Of a DNA stretch of 64,000 nucleotides, positions 18,870-30,692 are shown piece after piece. Made by a program: the position numbers and the translations under genes. The notes under the pieces were generated by a model. It saw only the letters and a list, made by a program, of their open reading frames with translations, searched no databases and was not told where the DNA came from. The DNA is from Candidatus Hecatellales archaeon. GTDB lineage: Archaea; Thermoproteota; Bathyarchaeia; Hecatellales; Hecatellaceae. The stretch covers positions 2,377-66,376 of the forward strand of contig QMXD01000002.1 of assembly GCA_003661965.1 (NCBI GenBank), written 5' to 3'. The first letter of the stretch is position 1. The number at the start of each line of letters is the position of its first letter.

Positions 18870-18899
18870 AATTTTTTACTGTGGGAGGTTAGATTAAAA

Positions 18900-19472
18900 A
18901 TCAGAAGAATTCTAGTTCTTAACAACAGTAGTGAAACCTTAGATAAGCTTGTTAACTTCCTTAAAAGCTTTAACGAGGTTAAAGTTGACGTTAAAAAACC
19001 TGGAGAGATTCTTCAACCCAACAACTATCATGGAGTAGTTATTTCAGGTGGTTTTCTCCCAAACGAAAGATACAGAGAGCTTCTTATCTGGTATAAGAAT
19101 TTTCTTAGTGAGGTTCAATGTCCAGTTTTGGGGATATGTTTAGGGCTTAGAATATTTGGCTATTGTTATGGTGCTAGGATAAGAAAAATGGAGAAGGAGG
19201 AAAACGGGATAGTAAAAATATTTTTCCATAGGGAGTATCCTCTTGCCCCTGGAAGAAAAGAGTTAACGGTTTATGAAACCCACCTATACGAGCTTATTTC
19301 TACTGGTGAATATCTTGAAAACTATGGTAGTTCAACTGTATGCAGAATTCAGGCGGTAAAACATAAAAGTAAACCTCATTATGCTGTTCAGTTTCATCCT
19401 GAAGTTGGTGAAAACAACGAGGGACCGCTTATCCTAGAAAATTTTGTTAGGCTTTGTGTAAAACAGTCATAA
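18900..19472 (+). CDS. guaAA: Class I glutamine amidotransferase, GMP synthase subunit A (GuaA-A)-like, with an atypical start
   Basis: GICLG... and a C-terminus IQAVKHKSKPHYAVQFHPEVGENNEGPLILENFV that closely resembles archaeal GuaA-A. The reading frame is open back to 18870 with no ATG/GTG/TTG. A strong SD (GGGAGGT, 18883..18889) sits 10 nt before the ATC at 18900. The track shows only the C-terminal 114 aa from the ATG at 19128. Confidence 0.55.
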   Translation: MRRILVLNNSSETLDKLVNFLKSFNEVKVDVKKPGEILQPNNYHGVVISGGFLPNERYRELLIWYKNFLSEVQCPVLGICLGLRIFGYCYGARIRKMEKEENGIVKIFFHREYPLAPGRKELTVYETHLYELISTGEYLENYGSSTVCRIQAVKHKSKPHYAVQFHPEVGENNEGPLILENFVRLCVKQS

Positions 19473-23179: not shown

Positions 23180-24505
23180 CTAAAAATTTTTAGATTCTTC
23201 GTCTACCAAAACCAAAATTAAAACTAAACCCACAAAAGAAACAGCAAGAATAAGGTTTAGGGTAACATCTGTTAAAGCTAAAGGTTGAATTTGGCTGGAG
23301 GTAACCTCAAACTCCACAGTTTTAACATTCTCCCCATTCACCTTAAAAATAAAGGTGTAGTGTCCAGGCCTAAGAAACCCTAAATTATAGGTTGAGGATT
23401 CTACAGTTATTACTTGGATTGCTGGTCCCTCCCAAGCTTCAACTTTTGCATCCACACTAAACACAGAGTTTTCTTTTTTAAGTGTTCCCCAGTCAACATG
23501 AAAATCTCCACTTTTAAAGGTTATGGAAACCTTAGCTAGGGTTTCTCCGTTTTTGGTTTTTTCTATGGATATTTTAACTTGTTCTGGGTTTGGCTTGTAT
23601 AGGGTCCATTTCCAAGCCTTAAGAAGGAGGTCTTCTTTGAGGTTTTGGAGGCTTCCCCTATAGGTGATAACTGAAAACCTTATGGTTTGGTTTGGCTGGA
23701 ATAGGTTTGCTATTCTTTTGTCTGCTTCAGCAACAACTTTTAACGGTATAATTTTGTTTCTCATTACCACCATGTAGTTGTTGGCTGGTAGGGTTGCTGG
23801 AAACCTTATCCTATCACTTGTTAAAAGAAAAACTGTGATGCTGGTTTTTCCTTTGGCTATAGAGGAAATTTTTAGTGGGAAGTATGCCTCCTTAGAGTCG
23901 AATTTATACATTAAAGGTTTAACTGTTTTAATGTTTTCTCCAACGTTTACAAGGTCAAAAACAAAATATTCAAATCCACGTTTAGTGTAGTCGTTAACAA
24001 GGCTTAAAACCTTCTCAAGGTTTGGTTTTGGAAGCCCATGTTTCCCTGTAAAATCTTCAACCCAACGAATAAAGTCTTTTGTATCCTTAACCCTAACCAC
24101 CGTAACATCATGAACACCTATCTTCTCATGGAAAACTACCTCTACACCCTCAACACCAGCTAAACCCTTCCCATAAACAACCCTTTTAGACCTAAAATAC
24201 CTTAACAAAACATCAAAAGACTTGGGTGAAGCCTCCTCAATTTCTGGTTTTGAGGGTAGGGGGAGAACCTCTAAAACAGGAGTTTTACCCTTAAGGGTTT
24301 TTAAATCAACCGAAAGAATAAGAATCTCCTTTTCACCGTTCCATGCAACTATAGCTTTTTGGCTTGGCTCATAGATTGGTATGTCACCTATTGGAATAAC
24401 ACCCTTATCAGCATAGGCTAAAAAACATGTTTGGCTAAGCAGGAAAACTGAAAATATTAACGTTAGTAGAAGCTTTTTTGTCAAGCTTTTCAACCAAGTT
24501 AACAT
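23180..24505 (-). CDS. Exported hypothetical protein with N-terminal signal peptide and C-terminal transmembrane anchor
   Basis: N-terminus LTLIFSVFLLSQTCFLAYA (signal-like) and a C-terminal hydrophobic helix LNLILAVSFVGLVLILVLV followed by DEESKNF. No catalytic motif was recognised. Confidence 0.5.
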   Translation of the reverse strand: MLTWLKSLTKKLLLTLIFSVFLLSQTCFLAYADKGVIPIGDIPIYEPSQKAIVAWNGEKEILILSVDLKTLKGKTPVLEVLPLPSKPEIEEASPKSFDVLLRYFRSKRVVYGKGLAGVEGVEVVFHEKIGVHDVTVVRVKDTKDFIRWVEDFTGKHGLPKPNLEKVLSLVNDYTKRGFEYFVFDLVNVGENIKTVKPLMYKFDSKEAYFPLKISSIAKGKTSITVFLLTSDRIRFPATLPANNYMVVMRNKIIPLKVVAEADKRIANLFQPNQTIRFSVITYRGSLQNLKEDLLLKAWKWTLYKPNPEQVKISIEKTKNGETLAKVSITFKSGDFHVDWGTLKKENSVFSVDAKVEAWEGPAIQVITVESSTYNLGFLRPGHYTFIFKVNGENVKTVEFEVTSSQIQPLALTDVTLNLILAVSFVGLVLILVLVDEESKNF

Positions 24506-24585
24506 AGCTTGGCTTGTATCCTATTAATCTTTTGAAAATGTTCGATAAAAACCGAACAGTCTAACAAAACACTAAAATTTTTTCT

Positions 24586-25734
24586 TTGGTAAATACTTAT
24601 GCTAGGTTATTAAAGATGGGTTTAGGAGACTATGTAAAAGAAATTAAAAACTGTCTTGAATGTTACGCATGCCACGAGGTTTGTCCAACCTATCTAACAA
24701 CAAAAAACGATTTTCACTCTCCAACCTCAAGACTTAAAGTTGCTAAAACCATTTTAGCGGATGAACCAATCCAAGAATGGATGGTTGAATCATCCTATTT
24801 TTGCACCCAGTGTGAGGCATGTGAAAAGGTTTGCCCCTCAAACATAAGAATTTCAAAGATTGTTGGTGAAGTTAGGGTTGAGCTTTTTAAGAGGGGTTTT
24901 GCACCTCTTGAACCCCATAAAAAAATTTTGGATTCTATCCTAAAAAACCAAAATTCTGTTGGTGGGGCTCCTGAAAAAAGGTGGGATTGGCTTCCTGAAC
25001 AATACAAGCAAAAGTTTGAAAACAACTCTTCAACCATGTTTTTTGTTGGCTGTCTTGCATCCTATCTAACAAGGGATGCTGCAATTTCAACTGTAAAGGT
25101 TTTAGAAAAGGTTGGAGTTGATTTTAGGCTTGTTAAAGATGAGGGTTGTTGTGGTGCTCCCTTCATAAACTTTGGTGACATGGAGAACGCTGAAAAAACC
25201 GTTAAAGAAAAACTTGACCTATTCGATGATTTAGGAGTAAAAAGGGTTTTGGTTATTTGTGCTGGATGCTACCGAACCTTTAAAGAATTCTACCCAAAAA
25301 TTTCTGGAGAAAACAAGGTTAAGTTTCAGCATGTGGTTGAGGTTTTAGATGAGCTTTATAGGAATGGAAAACTAAAAATGGGTAAATCTAAAAAAACCTT
25401 TATCTACCATGACCCATGCCATCTTGGAAGACTTTTTGGGGTTTATGAGGAGCCTAGAAGACTTTTAAAGGCTGCTGGAAACCTTGTAGAATTCGACGAG
25501 AATAGGGAAAACGTTTTTTGTTGTGGCGCAGATTCGGGTGTTAGAGCAGCCTTTAAAGACCCCTCAGTCCAAATGGCTCTAAAAAGGGTTAATGAAGCAT
25601 CAAAAAAGGCTGACATTTTAACAACAGCATGCTCCTTTTGTCTTTTCAACCTTAACTATGCATCAATAAAGTCTGGTAGAAAGCTTCCGGTAAAATATTT
25701 GACAGAAATAGTTTTGGAGGCTTTGGAAGACTAA
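24586..25734 (+). CDS. HdrD/GlcF-like iron-sulfur protein (two 4Fe-4S ferredoxin motifs plus two CCG domains)
   Basis: CLECYACHEVCP and CTQCEACEKVCP, then CCG motifs (EGCCGAPF; VFCCGADSGVRAAF; CSFCLFNL). The start is TTG at 24586, with an alternative ATG at 24616. Confidence 0.75.
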   Translation: MVNTYARLLKMGLGDYVKEIKNCLECYACHEVCPTYLTTKNDFHSPTSRLKVAKTILADEPIQEWMVESSYFCTQCEACEKVCPSNIRISKIVGEVRVELFKRGFAPLEPHKKILDSILKNQNSVGGAPEKRWDWLPEQYKQKFENNSSTMFFVGCLASYLTRDAAISTVKVLEKVGVDFRLVKDEGCCGAPFINFGDMENAEKTVKEKLDLFDDLGVKRVLVICAGCYRTFKEFYPKISGENKVKFQHVVEVLDELYRNGKLKMGKSKKTFIYHDPCHLGRLFGVYEEPRRLLKAAGNLVEFDENRENVFCCGADSGVRAAFKDPSVQMALKRVNEASKKADILTTACSFCLFNLNYASIKSGRKLPVKYLTEIVLEALED

Positions 25735-26720
25735 TGGTGGAAAATCTGATTGAAGACAAAAAACTTTTAAAATCAAAGTTTCTTGGAGCTTTGGTTGGAA
25801 CCGCTGTAGGTGACGCTTTAGGTATGCCTTTTGAAGGCTACGACCCAAAATATATCCAGTCAAGGTATGGAGAAGTTAAAGATATGTTTCCCGGTAAACT
25901 TCCAGCAGGCTCCTATACCGATGATACTGAAATGATGATTGGGGTTGCGGAGTCGCTTATTGAAAATTGTGGGTTTAACGGTGAACACATGGCTAAAACA
26001 TTCATAAAAAATTTTAATTCAAGTAGAGGTTATGGTTTTGGTGTTCAAATAGTTTTAAAGCTAATATCAGAAGGGGAATCATGGGAAAACGCTGCTGAAA
26101 ATCTTTTTGGCGGTATAGGCTCCTATGGGAATGGGGCTGCTATGAGGATTGCACCAGTAAGCATATTCTACTACGACAATTTTGATGAGCTTATAAAAAT
26201 AGCTGTTAAAACCGCAAAAATAACCCATACCCATCCACTTGGGGTTGAAGGTGCTGTTCTTCAAGCCTACGCTATAGCTTTAGCCTTAAACCAGCATCCA
26301 CTAAAAAACCTAAACATAGAAAACTTTTTACAATCCCTCCAAAACCTTGCCAAAAGCGAAACCTACAAAAACAAAATCAAAAAAATAAAAATTTTACTCA
26401 ACAAAAAAACAAGCAAATGGGAAGTTATTTTTTTGCTTGGAAACGGAATAGAAGCCTTTAACTCCGTCCCAACAGCAATCTACTCCTTCCTAGCCAACCA
26501 TAAAAACTTTGAGGATGCCGTAACCTACGCAGTAAACCTAGGTGTAGACACAGACACCATAGGAGCCATGACAGGAGCAATAAGCGGAGCCTACCACGGA
26601 TTTGAAGCCATACCAAAAAAATGGCTAAACAAACTTGAAAACCTAAACCACATAAAAAACCTAGCCGAAAAAATATGGGAAATCAAAACAACCCAAACAC
26701 AGCCTAAACCAAACATATAA
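25734..26720 (+). CDS. ADP-ribosylglycohydrolase family protein (DraG/ARH-like)
   Basis: LGALVGTAVGDALGMPFEG, SYTDDTEMM and LGVDTDTIGAMTGAISGAYHG are the ARH metal-binding motifs. Its ATG overlaps the upstream stop (TAATG). Confidence 0.75.
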   Translation: MVENLIEDKKLLKSKFLGALVGTAVGDALGMPFEGYDPKYIQSRYGEVKDMFPGKLPAGSYTDDTEMMIGVAESLIENCGFNGEHMAKTFIKNFNSSRGYGFGVQIVLKLISEGESWENAAENLFGGIGSYGNGAAMRIAPVSIFYYDNFDELIKIAVKTAKITHTHPLGVEGAVLQAYAIALALNQHPLKNLNIENFLQSLQNLAKSETYKNKIKKIKILLNKKTSKWEVIFLLGNGIEAFNSVPTAIYSFLANHKNFEDAVTYAVNLGVDTDTIGAMTGAISGAYHGFEAIPKKWLNKLENLNHIKNLAEKIWEIKTTQTQPKPNI

Positions 26721-26749
26721 TGCACTACACCGCAGTGTAATGCACAGCC
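26711..26749 (+). repeat. Copy 2 of the conserved intergenic element (AAACATATAATGCACTACACCGCAGTGTAATGCACAGCC)
   Basis: ~32/39 identical to copy 1. It lies 81 bp upstream of the hdrC2 start and is followed by a 7-bp inverted repeat TTATCCT-N10-AGGATAA (26750..26773). Confidence 0.75.
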
Positions 26750-26829
26750 TTATCCTAGCCTCCCACAGGATAAAACATCAAACCAACAAAAGTTTTAAGT
26801 TTTGGCTTCAGAAATTTAAAATATAAAAT

Positions 26830-27255
26830 TTGTTTGGTTTGGCTGATGTGGAAAGGTGTGTTTTGGTGGTTTTAGAGGACCGAAAACTCCTAGAGAAAAT
26901 TAAGGAGCTTAGCGGTATAGATCTTAGTGTTTGTATGCAGTGTGGTATATGTTCTGGAAGCTGTCCTGCAGTCGACCAGATGGATATAACACCAAGAATG
27001 ATGGTTAGACTTATCCAGCTTGGACGTGAAAAAGAGGTTTTAGATTCTAAGGCTATGTGGATTTGTCTTTCATGTTTTACCTGTTATGCTCGTTGTCCAC
27101 GTGAAATAGATTTTGCTAAGCTTGGTGAAGCCTTAAGACAGGTAAGACTTAGAAAAGGTTTAGACTATATCCGTATCTCAGAAATCCCTGAAGAAGAGTT
27201 TAAAAAGCTTCCTCAAATAGCCCTTGTAAGCTGTTTCCGTAAATTCACCTCCTAA
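26830..27255 (+). CDS. hdrC: HdrC-like 4Fe-4S ferredoxin (second copy)
   Basis: CMQCGICSGSCP and CLSCFTCYARCP motifs. The start is a TTG. Confidence 0.75.
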   Translation: MFGLADVERCVLVVLEDRKLLEKIKELSGIDLSVCMQCGICSGSCPAVDQMDITPRMMVRLIQLGREKEVLDSKAMWICLSCFTCYARCPREIDFAKLGEALRQVRLRKGLDYIRISEIPEEEFKKLPQIALVSCFRKFTS

Positions 27256-27258
27256 AGG

Positions 27259-28164
27259 GTGAAAACTTTGAAAATTCCATATTATCCAGGTTGCACCCTA
27301 AAAACCTCAGCCAAAAACCTTGAGGTTTCAGCCTTAGAGTCTGCTAAGGTTTTAGGTGTAGAGCTTGTTGAACTTCCAAGATGGAATTGTTGTGGTGCTG
27401 TTTTTTCTATGGCTACCGACGACCTAATACATCAGCTTGCCCCGATAAGAAACCTTATAAGAGTTCAGGAGATGAATGAGAAGGGTATTGTTGAAAACGA
27501 GAATCGTGTTGTGGTTTTATGTTCAATGTGTTTTAACACCCTAAAAAGAAGTAACATGTTTGTAAAGGAGGATAAGGAGAGACTAGAAAAAATTAACAAT
27601 TTTTTGTCTGATACCGAGGAGCCATATCAGGGAAACATTGAGGTTATCCACTTTTTGGAGCTTTTAAAAAACGATATAGGATTTGATAGGGTGGCTGAAA
27701 AGGTAAAAAAACCTTTAAAAAACCTTAAGATTGCACCGTATTATGGCTGTCTACTTTTAAGACCTGAGGAAATCGCCATAGACAACCCTCAATCACCAAA
27801 AGTTCTTGAGAATCTTCTTGAGGCTTTAGGTGCTACTGTTGTTGACACCCAGTTTAAAACTAGGTGTTGTGGAAGCTATCAGACGGTTAACCGTAAAGAG
27901 CTTGTTGCTGAACTTGCATATGACATCCTTAACCAAGTAAAGATTAGTGGTGCTGATTGTGTTGTTACAAGCTGTCCTCTTTGCATGTTTAATCTTGACA
28001 CTAGACAGGAGGAGGTTAAAAAGGCTCACCCAGAATTTAAAACAATTCCAGTTTTCTACTTTACCCAGCTTATGGCTTTAGCCTTTGATTTAGGAGAAAG
28101 CTTTTATAGGTTTGATTTAAACTATGTGAATCCGAAACCGTTACTATCTGAAAAAATCTTTTAA
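27259..28164 (+). CDS. hdrB: HdrB-like CCG-domain protein (second copy)
   Basis: YPGCTL...NCCGAVFS...; RCCGSYQ; SCPLCMFNLD. The start is GTG at 27259, 4 bp after the hdrC2 stop. Confidence 0.8.
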   Translation: MKTLKIPYYPGCTLKTSAKNLEVSALESAKVLGVELVELPRWNCCGAVFSMATDDLIHQLAPIRNLIRVQEMNEKGIVENENRVVVLCSMCFNTLKRSNMFVKEDKERLEKINNFLSDTEEPYQGNIEVIHFLELLKNDIGFDRVAEKVKKPLKNLKIAPYYGCLLLRPEEIAIDNPQSPKVLENLLEALGATVVDTQFKTRCCGSYQTVNRKELVAELAYDILNQVKISGADCVVTSCPLCMFNLDTRQEEVKKAHPEFKTIPVFYFTQLMALAFDLGESFYRFDLNYVNPKPLLSEKIF

Positions 28165-28215: not shown

Positions 28216-29013
28216 ATGGGTGGGAAGTTGGTGGAAAAAACTCTGGAAGAAAAAACCTCAGAAAGGTTCTTGGATATTATGGAGAGAATAAAAGAGTCAA
28301 ACAAGTCTGTCACCACTGGTATTGATGAGAAGGAGATTAAACATTGGGTAACAATCTACATTATGGGTAAAGCTTACAAGGTTCCAGCAGACCTAACACT
28401 TATGCAGGCAATGGAGTTTGCTGGTTACAGGTTTATTAGGGGAGCAGGTTGTAGAGCAGGATTTTGTGGGGCATGCGCAACAATCTACAGGAAAAAGGGT
28501 GAATATAAGCTTAGAACAGCCTTAGCATGTCAAACAAGAGTTGAGGATGGAATGTATCTTGTACAGATACCTTTTGCTCCAGCAGAAAAACCTGTTTACA
28601 ACCTTGACAAGGAGGGTGGGGGTTTAGATGTTGTTTTTAAACATTTTCCAGAGGTTGCTAGATGTGTCTCCTGTAACACATGCACCAAAGCATGCCCCCA
28701 AACCTTAGAAGTTATGGATTGTATTCAGGCAATTCTTCGTGGAGATTTTAAGTTTGCAGCTGAAAACTCCTTTGACTGTATTCAGTGTGGCTTATGTTCA
28801 ATTAGATGTCCAGCTGAAATAATTCATTATCACCTTTTCCAGATGGTTAGAAGAATTCATGGAAAGTTTGGTGTCCCCCCAGAACCAAACCTAGAAAAAA
28901 GAATTAAAGAGATAGAAGAGGGAAAGTTTAACGAAGAATTTGAAAAGCTCCTTAAACTCAGCCCAGAGGAGCTTAAAGAAATCTACAGGAAGAGAGAAAT
29001 AAAGCTTGACTAG
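28216..29013 (+). CDS. Succinate dehydrogenase/fumarate reductase iron-sulfur subunit-like protein (2Fe-2S plus two 4Fe-4S)
   Basis: 2Fe-2S segment CRAGFCGACA, 4Fe-4S CVSCNTCTKACP and CIQCGLCSIRCP. This is the SdhB/FrdB/TfrB N-domain architecture. Confidence 0.7.
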   Translation: MGGKLVEKTLEEKTSERFLDIMERIKESNKSVTTGIDEKEIKHWVTIYIMGKAYKVPADLTLMQAMEFAGYRFIRGAGCRAGFCGACATIYRKKGEYKLRTALACQTRVEDGMYLVQIPFAPAEKPVYNLDKEGGGLDVVFKHFPEVARCVSCNTCTKACPQTLEVMDCIQAILRGDFKFAAENSFDCIQCGLCSIRCPAEIIHYHLFQMVRRIHGKFGVPPEPNLEKRIKEIEEGKFNEEFEKLLKLSPEELKEIYRKREIKLD

Positions 29014-29033: not shown

Positions 29034-30692
29034 ATGTCTGAACTAAAATTTATTGAAGGATACCCGGAATACATGTATAAGCTTATAGAAATTGTTCATG
29101 AGACAAGAAGCGCTAGACTAAAAGAAAAACCACGTTTTATGACTCTTGAGGAAAGAGAGGAAGTATTAAAAATACATCCAGACTATGCTCCTGGAGGTAA
29201 AAGAGAAATTAGGATTGGACCTAACAAGGGGGATGTAGCCCCAAACGAGGTTGTAGATCTGCTTGAAGCTTACCCCCTTATTAACCCAAACGAGATAGAC
29301 CTAAACAATGTTGACTATGAGCCTGACATACTTATAATAGGTGGAGGTTTAGCAGGCACAACAGCCGCCTTATGGGCTAACGATAACGGTATCCCTGCAG
29401 AAAATATTTTACTTGTTACAAAGCTTAGACATGGAGACTCTAACTCCGTTATGGCTCAGGGTGGAACTCAGGCTGCTGATAGACCTGACGACTCCCCAAT
29501 AATCCACTTTATCGATACGATGGGTGGAGGACATTTTGCTAATAAGCCTGATGTTGTTAGAGCTCTTGTTGAAGATGCTCCAAGCATTATTAAGTGGCTG
29601 GTTGAGCTTGGAGCGATGTTTGATAGGGATGAAAACGGATACTTCTTAGAGCTTTCTGGTGGAGGTGCTTCAAGAAGAAGAATGCATGCTGCTGGAGACT
29701 ATACAGGGCTTGAGGAGATGAGGGTTGTTAGAGATGAGTTTAGGAATAGGGGTATCCCATGTCTTGAGTTTAACCCTGCTATAGAGCTTCTTACGGATAA
29801 TGATGGAAAAGTTGTAGGTGCGGTTTTATGGAATATGGAAACAAGAGAGTATAAGATTGTTAAGGCTAAAGCAACAATACTTGCAACAGGAGGTTTTGGA
29901 AGACTCCATATTAGAGGTTTCCCAACAACAAACCATTATGGAGCCACGTGTGACGGTGTTGTTTTAGCCTACAGGGCTGGAGCAAAACTTAGAGATATGG
30001 ATACAGTCCAATACCATCCTACAGGTGCAGCCTACCCACAACAGATAATAGGTCTTCTTCTAACCGAAAAGTTAAGAACTGCTGGTGCTCAAGTTGTAAA
30101 CGTTGATGGTGAAGCTTTCGTTAACCCTCTTGAACCTAGGGATGTTGAAGCATCAGCAATCATAAGAGAATGCTACATAAGAAACAAGGGAATCACAACA
30201 CCAACAGGAATTAGAGGTGTATGGTTAGATATTCCAATGATAGACTTGGTTAGAGGTGAAGGCTCAATAAAAAAGCTTTTCCCAGGTATGGTTAGAATGT
30301 ATAACAGGTTTGGAATAAACATAACAAAAAATCCTGTGCTTGTTTTTCCAACACTCCACTACCAAAACGGTGGTGTTGAAACAGACCCCTACGGTCAAAC
30401 AAACGTTAAAGGGTTGTTTGTTGCTGGTGAAGTTTCCGGAGGAGTTCATGGGAAGAATAGGCTTATGGGAAACTCAACCCTAGACTGCTTGGTTTTTGGT
30501 AGGAGAGCAGGAATAACAGCTGCAAACTATGTTAAAAGCGGAGTAAAAATTGGTAAATTAACCCTAAACCATGTGGAAAAATATGTTAAAGAGCTTGAAA
30601 ACACTGGAATAAAAACGAGTAGAAGGTCTCCGATTCTCCTACCAGACTATAGGGGGAAGGCAGTTCTAGCCAGAATGATTGATGTCTTCTAG
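29034..30692 (+). CDS. Fumarate reductase/succinate dehydrogenase flavoprotein-like FAD-binding subunit with ~95-aa N-terminal extension
   Basis: ILIIGGGLAG (FAD Rossmann), RHGDSNSVMAQGG (His at the covalent-FAD position), HYQNGG and RLMGNSTLDCLVFGRRAG, which are SdhA/FrdA/NadB-family signatures. The N-terminal 95 aa precede the Rossmann motif and have no counterpart I recognise. Confidence 0.7.
   Translation: MSELKFIEGYPEYMYKLIEIVHETRSARLKEKPRFMTLEEREEVLKIHPDYAPGGKREIRIGPNKGDVAPNEVVDLLEAYPLINPNEIDLNNVDYEPDILIIGGGLAGTTAALWANDNGIPAENILLVTKLRHGDSNSVMAQGGTQAADRPDDSPIIHFIDTMGGGHFANKPDVVRALVEDAPSIIKWLVELGAMFDRDENGYFLELSGGGASRRRMHAAGDYTGLEEMRVVRDEFRNRGIPCLEFNPAIELLTDNDGKVVGAVLWNMETREYKIVKAKATILATGGFGRLHIRGFPTTNHYGATCDGVVLAYRAGAKLRDMDTVQYHPTGAAYPQQIIGLLLTEKLRTAGAQVVNVDGEAFVNPLEPRDVEASAIIRECYIRNKGITTPTGIRGVWLDIPMIDLVRGEGSIKKLFPGMVRMYNRFGINITKNPVLVFPTLHYQNGGVETDPYGQTNVKGLFVAGEVSGGVHGKNRLMGNSTLDCLVFGRRAGITAANYVKSGVKIGKLTLNHVEKYVKELENTGIKTSRRSPILLPDYRGKAVLARMIDVF

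Follow-up and report, generated by a model that had tools for sequence, protein, structure and literature searches.

An ARH3-type ADP-ribosylglycohydrolase gene overlapping the gene of an HdrD-type iron-sulfur protein in a Hecatellales archaeon: an unusual, clade-restricted gene order

Two adjacent genes on the forward strand of a contig from a Candidatus Hecatellales archaeon (Bathyarchaeia; GenBank assembly GCA_003661965.1, contig QMXD01000002.1) encode, respectively, an iron-sulfur protein of the HdrD (heterodisulfide reductase subunit D) type and an ADP-ribosylglycohydrolase (ARH). Both proteins belong to known kinds, and their adjacency is unusual but confined to one archaeal clade. The window analyzed here is the 64,000-nucleotide (nt) stretch of this contig from position 2,377 to position 66,376, and the coordinates below refer to this window unless a locus number is given (Table 1). 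The TAA stop codon of the HdrD-like gene (25732-25734) and the ATG start codon of the ARH gene (25734-25736) have one base in common; judging from the sequence, the two genes probably form a short bicistronic unit and would be co-transcribed and co-expressed. A preliminary description of the window had reported the overlap with an intact ARH gene, had regarded the pairing as unusual and had placed it directly upstream of an hdrCB plus fumarate-reductase-like cluster, all of which is borne out by the present analysis; its further proposal, ADP-ribosylation-based regulation of a thiol/disulfide redox enzyme, finds no positive support.

The product of the ARH gene matches the ADP_ribosyl_GH family over nearly the entire profile (PF03747, positions 1-286 of 287, 258.9 bits against a cut-off of 26.2, E 1e-76). 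The top sequence matches in the PDB are vertebrate ARH3 (E from 8e-48 to 8e-44), followed by MJ1187 (5e-38) and by DraG chains (about 1e-18). The AlphaFold model, built on 35 orthologues, is a confident, all-helical ARH fold, with a predicted local distance difference test (pLDDT) score of 94.2 and a predicted template modeling (pTM) score of 0.93. A Foldseek search with this model places ARH3 first (TM 0.80-0.85, 32-36% identity) and MJ1187 next, with a probability of 1.00 for ARH3, MJ1187 and 2CWC. The catalytic and metal-binding motifs, the latter already recognized in the preliminary description, are all retained, namely FEG with E34, YTDDT at residues 61-65 and DTDT at residues 272-275; they align with the Glu flap and the metal motifs of ARH3, and the respective residues are invariant or nearly so in the 35 orthologues. 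The one unusual residue in this region is V271, directly before DTDT, where more than 90% of the orthologues have Gly. F125 and Y131, in the segment FGGIGSYGNG, align with the corresponding residues of the mouse ARH3 segment FNGKGSYGNG, with an equal six-residue spacing, and the clamp formed by Phe143 and Tyr149 in ARH3 is the ARH3-specific mode of adenine binding (PMC7050489). By both sequence and model, then, the hydrolase classifies as ARH3-type. Assignment to DraG (TIGR02662) was rejected, with a score of 117.1 bits compared with a cut-off of 337, and the PDB ranking and the ARH3-type adenine clamp also speak against it, so that the analogy with DraG drawn in the preliminary description is weak. 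Of the hydrolases assayed with ADP-ribosylated RNA ends, ARH3 showed activity but ARH1, which is specific for arginine, did not (PMC6582358). The Tri1 ADP-ribosylarginine hydrolase (NF041672) was likewise rejected (116.5 bits, cut-off 490).

The HdrD-like protein combines two ferredoxin motifs with two subsequent CCG domains that carry the cysteine pattern of non-cubane clusters, that is, the HdrD-type architecture that had been recognized from the sequence at the outset. The open reading frame (ORF) opens with TTG, and the length counted from the probable ATG start is the one that gene callers assign to the HdrD-like proteins of its relatives. Pfam detects both stretches of the CCG domain (E 1e-29) and the 4Fe-4S dicluster domain Fer4_8 (E 3e-12); the CxxCxxCxxxCP motifs begin at residues 13 and 63, and the CCG motifs occupy residues 178-180 and 302-304. 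All 18 cysteines of the protein fall within cluster motifs and all 18 are invariant across 31 homologues, including those of the CCG part (146, 178, 179, 215, 218, 268, 302, 303, 339 and 342). In HdrB, the CCG domains carry non-cubane [4Fe-4S] clusters that are the site of disulfide reduction. The top NCBIfam match is TfrB, aligned over positions 129-486 of 488 (E 1e-68, 232 bits against a cut-off of 385), and the matches in the PDB are the HdrB and HdrC subunits, although the HdrB and HdrC models themselves score only 56 bits (cut-off 345) and 34 bits (cut-off 160), respectively. The sequence is similar to that of the C-terminal three quarters of TfrB; because the alignment begins at profile position 129, the protein lacks the N-terminal 2Fe-2S domain, and identity with TfrB (NF004898) was rejected on account of this absence and of the score below the cut-off. 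Identity with the HdrD of HdrDE was rejected as well, as no HdrE-like gene adjoins the HdrD-like gene.

The window ARH has a cluster-mate with 90% identity or more whose annotation is to a Candidatus Hecatellales archaeon metagenome-assembled genome, and relatives with about 60% identity carry the annotation Bathyarchaeota; it is within one Bathyarchaeia/Hecatellales clade that the pairing is found. The gene order there is HdrD-like, ARH, HdrC, HdrB, Fe-S protein, flavoprotein and, on the opposite strand, adk. This order is kept in loci L081-L083, with 88-89% ARH identity, in L084, with 85% identity and different upstream genes, and in L089, where the identity is 62% and the HdrD-like and ARH genes are separated by 53 nt. 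The pair is also present in L170 (64% identity, 10-nt gap), where the contig ends inside the next gene and the order is visible only at its start. The TAATG overlap recurs in L081-L083 and L084 and is thus confined to relatives with at least 85% ARH identity; the GGAGG sequence upstream of the ARH start codon is also found in L081 and L084. Adjacency is accordingly kept down to 62-64% ARH identity but only in L081-L084, L089 and L170, all members of one clade, and is absent from L085-L088 and L171-L176. A lack of adjacency in every relative, which the preliminary description had named as a result that would weaken the link, is thus not what is observed.

In the other members of the clade, the ARH gene has no HdrD-like partner. 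Loci L086-L088 (59-60% ARH identity) share with the window a block of genes for an aminotransferase, GATase, TrmI, V-type ATPase subunit E, an MJ0043-like protein and a small DUF2330-related protein, and directly 3' of the ARH gene they carry canonical TfrA (570 amino acids) and TfrB (527 amino acids), without an HdrD-like gene (L086:5926-10221, L087:8001-12337 and L088:8001-12337). The possibility that the HdrD-like protein and the flavoprotein of the window are orthologues of these TfrB and TfrA was rejected, the identity to the proteins of L087 being 28% and 36%, respectively; two non-orthologous fumarate-reductase-like systems fill the same slot in the window lineage and in L086-L088. In L085, L171 and L172 (62% ARH identity), the context consists of phosphoribosyltransferase (PRTase), HAD and metallophosphatase genes, and the ARH gene lies between those for the HAD hydrolase and the metallophosphatase. 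Clade members with 58% ARH identity have the ARH gene 3' of a gene of unknown function or of a Na+/H+ exchanger gene, and in L175:5037-6951 and L176:5052-6951 (55% identity) it follows, at a distance of 10 nt, the gene for a thioredoxin-reductase-like flavoprotein (Pyr_redox_2, E 1e-46). In L086-L088, sister lineages that have no HdrD-like gene, the ARH holds its slot, and therefore the link is not specific to HdrD. In a rough neighbor-joining tree, all these ARHs fall in one clade in which the HdrD-linked proteins are interleaved among the others; therefore, the pairing probably goes back to the ancestor of a family-level group, with several later losses or rearrangements. Comparison of the six HdrD-linked ARHs with 111 other orthologues yields five clade-specific positions, none of them catalytic, the one nearest to a metal motif being N268, where 84% of the other orthologues have Ser.

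Outside this clade the ARH is common and the pairing is not. At E<=1e-20, the homologues comprise 5131 proteins, and relatives with 36-57% identity are encoded at no fewer than 586 places in species-representative genomes, in Methanophagales, Bathyarchaeia, Hadarchaeota, Chloroflexota, Planctomycetota, Nitrospirota and others. The gene context was sampled in the best 80 of these at least 586 species-level loci, 70 of the 80 having at least 1.5 kb of sequence upstream. A tblastn search of these 80 loci with the HdrD-like, HdrC, HdrB, Fe-S protein and flavoprotein sequences of the window detected an HdrD-like gene in a single locus (L009), 846 nt from the ARH gene and with a product 25% identical to the window protein, as well as one partial match to the flavoprotein. 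By a rough estimate, one HdrD-like neighbor in 80 loci is expected by chance, CCG proteins being common in anaerobes. Nor does the ARH have another constant companion: when all ORFs within 5 kb in 89 loci were clustered by BLAST, no neighbor family was present in more than nine loci, and the nine-locus family is a GTPase-like gene from eight Chloroflexota/Dehalococcoidia-type loci and L074, that is, lineage synteny. The ARH is a member of a widespread, slowly evolving archaeal and bacterial orthologue group without a constant neighbor and without an association with Hdr. Grouping with housekeeping ARH paralogues that have a known, unrelated substrate had been named in advance as a result that would weaken the connection with HdrD, and placement inside this broad group does so.

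Forty-three neighbors of the ARH were considered operon-like, that is, encoded on the same strand less than 120 nt away, and were scanned with Pfam. The most common among them are an ArsR-type helix-turn-helix (HTH) protein with DUF4430 (four cases), Tpt1/KptA (two), DUF1847 (two) and GFO/IDH/MocA (two). Genes for proteins of about 185 amino acids lie within 65 nt 3' of the ARH gene at L002:993-1556, L003:10964-11497, L006:4292-4849 and L007:8076-8642, in metagenome-assembled genomes (MAGs) labeled Methanophagales, Methanosarcinales, 'Halobacteria' and Methanospirareceae, respectively; four members of the neighbor set match the ArsR-type HTH and DUF4430 families, and the combination was confirmed individually for L006 and L007. 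In the Hadarchaeota locus L021:4585-6260, the ARH and Tpt1/KptA genes overlap by 3 nt, and in L056:9439-11497 (Bythopirellula) the order is NUDIX, ARH, Tpt1, with two more ARH paralogues upstream. Pairing with Tpt1/KptA fits real ADP-ribose chemistry because ARH3 reverses the RNA ADP-ribosylation made by TRPT1 (PMC6582358).

From the side of the HdrD-like protein, the result is the same. No ARH gene accompanies the HdrD-like gene in any of 80 metagenome loci (L090-L169) that encode relatives with 30-44% identity; in 62 of these loci, the downstream sequence extends for at least 1 kb. Taken with the single case among the 80 ARH loci, this means that the module is not conserved beyond one syntenic lineage. 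The most common neighbor of these relatives, in 39 of the 80 loci, is a GlcD-like FAD-linked oxidase, the usual GlcD/GlcF-type pairing, which is found mostly beside relatives with 30-35% identity. No common neighbor is seen among the relatives with the highest identity (40-49%), which come from MAGs of Asgard-related archaea and from other MAGs; for the 49%-identical protein P0127 the contig ends 130 nt past the gene, and the context is uninformative.

Downstream of the ARH gene, the window encodes an HdrC-like protein, an HdrB-like protein, an Fe-S protein and a flavoprotein, the cluster noted in the preliminary description (Table 1). All these proteins score below the curated cut-offs for the enzymes after which they are named. 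The PDB matches of the flavoprotein are SdhA, NadB and FrdA, and all NCBIfam models for Tfr, Sdh, Frd and NadB are below their cut-offs. This protein is atypical in having an N-terminal extension of about 95 amino acids and lacking the Succ_DH_flav_C domain, and it has LLTEKLRTAGAQ at the site where the TfrA of the sister-lineage locus L087 has LITEAARGEGGY; therefore, its substrate may not be fumarate. The spacer of 110 nt between the ARH and hdrC-like genes (26721-26829) contains a hairpin, two T-runs and a TATA-like AAATATAAAA. The window, L081 and L084 share the TATA-like core, and the T-runs are conserved in L081 and L084; L081 has a sequence similar to the hairpin, and L084, L089 and L170 have none. 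The GTG codon taken as the start of the hdrC-like gene aligns with the hdrC start in the relatives, and the interpretation of TTTAAAATATAAAAT as a promoter is based on the usual archaeal promoter layout. The hairpin and the T-runs possibly mark the end of the HdrD-ARH transcription unit, the spacer as a whole is probably a terminator/promoter boundary between two transcription units, and its layout suggests that the hdrCB-Fe-S-flavoprotein genes are under their own promoter. No Rfam family matched in a scan of 24300-27400, and the count in a sigma-70 promoter scan was not above that in shuffled sequences, such a scan not being meaningful for an archaeon.

Table 1. Genes and sequence features at the HdrD-ARH locus and in the downstream cluster (window coordinates)
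Feature	Coordinates	Strand	Remarks
HdrD-type Fe-S protein gene	24586..25734	+	ORF; TTG at 24586, probable start ATG 24616 (372 amino acids)
GGAGG, Shine-Dalgarno-like	25716..25720	+	13 nt 5' of the ARH ATG, within the 3' end of the HdrD-like ORF; putative role
TAATG stop/start overlap	25732..25736	+	read from the sequence
ARH3-type ADP-ribosylglycohydrolase gene (predicted)	25734..26720	+	328 amino acids; PF03747, E 1e-76
Imperfect hairpin directly 3' of the ARH stop codon	26721..26744	+	terminator scan (minus-strand call); single occurrence in the window
T-runs	26789-26805	+	in the ARH-hdrC spacer
TATA-box-like TTTAAAATATAAAAT	26815..26829	+	about 26 nt 5' of the probable hdrC-like GTG start at 26848; putative promoter
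HdrC-like 2x[4Fe-4S] protein	26830..27255	+	TIGR03290, 80 bits against a cut-off of 160; probable start GTG 26848
HdrB/SdhE-like protein, two CCG domains	27259..28164	+	HdrB model 183 bits against 345; SdhE membrane-anchor model 175 against 500
2Fe-2S + 2x[4Fe-4S] protein, divergent, SdhB/TfrB-N-terminal-like	28216..29013	+	Pfam, NCBIfam
SdhA/FrdA/TfrA/NadB-superfamily flavoprotein	29034..30692	+	FAD_binding_2, E 1e-70; TfrA model 316 bits against 718

A Pfam scan of the approximately 60 genes in the window, and of the window only, detected no ADP-ribosyltransferase, Sir2, macrodomain, Tpt1 or NUDIX protein, nor draT, nifH or PII, so that the transferase partner sought after the preliminary description is missing from this stretch. 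No biosynthetic genes accompany the HdrD-ARH pair, and a search of the literature for precedents of a link between ARH and Hdr found none, the co-mentions being unrelated lists. The other genes of the window include archaeal housekeeping genes, namely those for V-type ATPase subunit E, aIF5A, deoxyhypusine synthase and Alba, as well as genes for CofH-type radical-SAM proteins and succinyl-CoA synthetase. A second pair of hdrC-like (650-1234) and hdrB-like (1221-2126; two CCG stretches, E 2.5e-38) genes is located about 23 kb upstream. Divergent from the HdrD-like gene, on the minus strand at 23180-24505, is the gene for a 441-amino-acid DUF2330 protein whose N- and C-terminal segments are hydrophobic; at its position, L086-L089 encode a protein of about 165-180 amino acids that clusters with its C-terminal part. 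The GATase gene (18870-19472) is intact by homology, its product sharing 81% identity with the L081 counterpart across residues 1-183, but there is no ATG, GTG or TTG at the homologous start, which reads CTA in the window and TTG in L081; because of this absence of a standard start codon, the gene was listed only as a 114-amino-acid fragment from 19128. Either a sequence error or initiation at a non-canonical codon, for example, ATT at 18909, is possible. The molybdopterin-oxidoreductase ORF at 56951-58321 matches Pfam only from position 143 of 353 and is preceded by about 660 nt of apparently non-coding sequence; it may be truncated or split.

The reading that best accommodates these observations, with a probability of about 0.6, is that the HdrD-type protein and a general-purpose ARH3-type hydrolase are co-expressed by virtue of a lineage-specific gene order and do not share a pathway. 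The HdrD-like protein is predicted to be soluble, with ferredoxin-type [4Fe-4S] motifs for electron transfer in addition to the two CCG domains, and would shuttle electrons between a thiol/disulfide couple and a flavoprotein, for example, the downstream fumarate-reductase-like enzyme; it probably serves this adjacent flavoprotein system. The ARH would be a divalent-metal-dependent hydrolase that cleaves O-linked ADP-ribose, presumably in general ADP-ribose clean-up. Candidate substrates are ADP-ribose on protein hydroxyls, ADP-ribose on the phosphate ends of nucleic acids (the Tpt1/KptA reaction) and O-acetyl-ADP-ribose, the degradation of which has been raised as a role of ARH3 in the salvage of metabolites and the recycling of NAD (PMC7050489). 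The gene overlap would provide for co-expression, and the adjacency would be a gene-order feature of the lineage; we infer that a functional link between the two proteins is absent.

Several observations weigh against this reading. Overlap of stop and start codons is typical of functionally related gene pairs. The adjacency has survived large divergence, as in L170 and L089, and L084 retains the pair even though the upstream synteny is broken. Furthermore, within the clade the ARH gene adjoins three kinds of redox genes, namely HdrD together with the HdrCB-flavoprotein cluster, TfrAB and the TrxB-like flavoprotein, so that the ARH stayed while its redox neighbor changed, which could mean a link to the type of enzyme and not to HdrD itself. 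The recurrence of thiol/flavin redox neighbors in the clade is the main observation left unexplained by a mere gene-order feature. Finally, to our knowledge, no prokaryotic ARH3-like enzyme has a known physiological substrate, and the 'housekeeping' label is thus itself an assumption. All things considered, a functional link between the ARH and redox enzymes appears rather improbable, and with the present data it is not separable from inherited synteny.

A possible, tentative refinement of the favored reading is that the ARH processes or reverses Tpt1/KptA-type transfer of ADP-ribose to the phosphate ends of nucleic acids, the HdrD-like neighbor being irrelevant. Human ARH3 removes ADP-ribose that is set on the 5'-phosphate of RNA by TRPT1/KptA (PMC6582358); archaea have a conserved Tpt1 that has no known 2'-phosphate substrate (PMC7050489), and the operon-like ARH-Tpt1 arrangements of L021 and L056, the latter with NUDIX upstream, point in the same direction. 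Still, Tpt1 accounts for only two of the 43 operon-like neighbors, and the window, if not necessarily the genome as a whole, lacks a Tpt1 gene.

DraG is the classical ARH that reactivates an Fe-S enzyme, and a DraT/DraG-like switch, in which a thiol/disulfide or fumarate-reductase-like subunit would be reversibly ADP-ribosylated and then reactivated by the co-expressed ARH, is the functional connection considered in the preliminary description. Translational coupling of the two genes, the retention of their adjacency over considerable divergence, the intact catalytic site and the presence of TfrAB or a TrxB-like flavoprotein beside the ARH in sister lineages are all compatible with such a switch, but the adjacency does not count as independent evidence for it, since the synteny in the clade extends to unrelated flanking genes. 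The ARH3-type features of the protein and its low score against the DraG model, the lack of a transferase gene in the window, the 80 other species in which the orthologues have no Hdr/CCG partner, with one distant exception, the absence of an ARH gene near HdrD-like relatives outside the clade and the lack of clade-specific change in the active site all argue in the opposite direction, and the switch is unlikely. Taken together, the ARH3-type identity, the spread of the orthologues, the HdrD-independent slot and the lack of a transferase in the window leave the regulation of a redox enzyme by ADP-ribosylation unsupported.

A broader version of a functional link can be formulated, namely that in one Bathyarchaeia/Hecatellales lineage an ARH3-type hydrolase was recruited to assist, as a dedicated partner, soluble fumarate-reductase/Hdr-like enzymes that depend on a thiol or a flavin, removing inhibitory or damaging ADP-ribose from a subunit or from the thiol substrate. 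The constancy of the ARH beside three changing redox enzymes is a hint in this direction; we nevertheless consider such recruitment doubtful, and it is just as doubtful that the ARH represents an archaeal, O-linked counterpart of the DraT/DraG switch that acts on energy metabolism. Least probable of all is the use of the ARH fold for small-molecule hydrolysis tied to the redox module, such as processing of an (ADP-)ribosylated cofactor or the freeing of a thiol cofactor from an ADP-ribose adduct, which would agree with the operon-like gene pair, the recurrent thiol/flavin redox neighbors and the absence of any substrate assignment for prokaryotic ARH3-like enzymes even with the MJ1187 structure solved, but runs against the conservation of the full ARH3 set for binding ADP-ribose (F125/Y131, the GSYGNG loop and both metal motifs), which therefore favors a true ADP-ribosyl substrate, against the invariance of the same residues in orthologues with unrelated neighbors and against the lack of biosynthetic genes beside the pair.

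Were the two genes to form a functional module, this would be the first case of ADP-ribosylation controlling an enzyme of the heterodisulfide-reductase or fumarate-reductase type, and an archaeal ARH3-like protein would for the first time have an assigned role. The observations instead favor a clade-restricted feature of gene order, and therefore the overlap of a stop and a start codon is insufficient to infer a shared pathway. For the widespread prokaryotic ARH3-like group, the clusters of ARH, Tpt1 and NUDIX genes offer a better entry to function than this locus.

With regard to known systems, the closest counterpart of the ARH is vertebrate ARH3 (ADPRHL2/ADPRS; PDB 2FOZ, 6G1P, 7AKR), the best match in both sequence and fold, which shares with it YTDDT and DTDT, a Glu at the catalytic Glu-flap position and the Phe/Tyr clamp in an F-x5-Y GSYGNG loop. 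The window protein differs in being prokaryotic and somewhat shorter, at 328 amino acids compared with approximately 347-366, and we know of no PARP/HPF1-type serine ADP-ribosylation system in this organism. MJ1187 of Methanocaldococcus jannaschii (PDB 1T5J; E 5e-38, TM 0.81-0.88, 31% identity), on which the literature searched offered nothing relevant to ADP-ribosylation, and the Thermus thermophilus ADP-ribosylglycohydrolase-related protein 2CWC are stand-alone prokaryotic ARH folds but are less similar to the window ARH than eukaryotic ARH3 is. DraG belongs to the same fold family, PF03747; in contrast, the adenine-binding features of the window protein are ARH3-type and its context in the window includes no DraT, NifH or PII.

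The HdrD-like protein, for its part, shares with the HdrD of Methanosarcina HdrDE the fusion of an HdrC-like 2x[4Fe-4S] part to an HdrB-like part with two CCG domains, has all cluster-binding cysteines and finds its PDB matches in HdrB and HdrC, the subunits of HdrABC, but neither a gene for the HdrE cytochrome b nor one for HdrA adjoins it. The GlcF-, GlpC- and LldF-type Fe-S subunits of flavoprotein dehydrogenases have the same Fer4 plus 2xCCG architecture; unlike these, the window gene has no adjoining GlcD-like gene, and the NCBIfam models of GlcF, GlpC and LdhH score below their cut-offs. A further counterpart is TfrB of the coenzyme M/coenzyme B thiol:fumarate reductase. The window protein lacks the N-terminal 2Fe-2S domain of TfrB and shares only 28% identity with the TfrB from L087, but TfrB is its best NCBIfam match, its gene adjoins a fumarate-reductase-like flavoprotein cluster, and it is a true TfrAB that occupies the same slot in the sister lineages.

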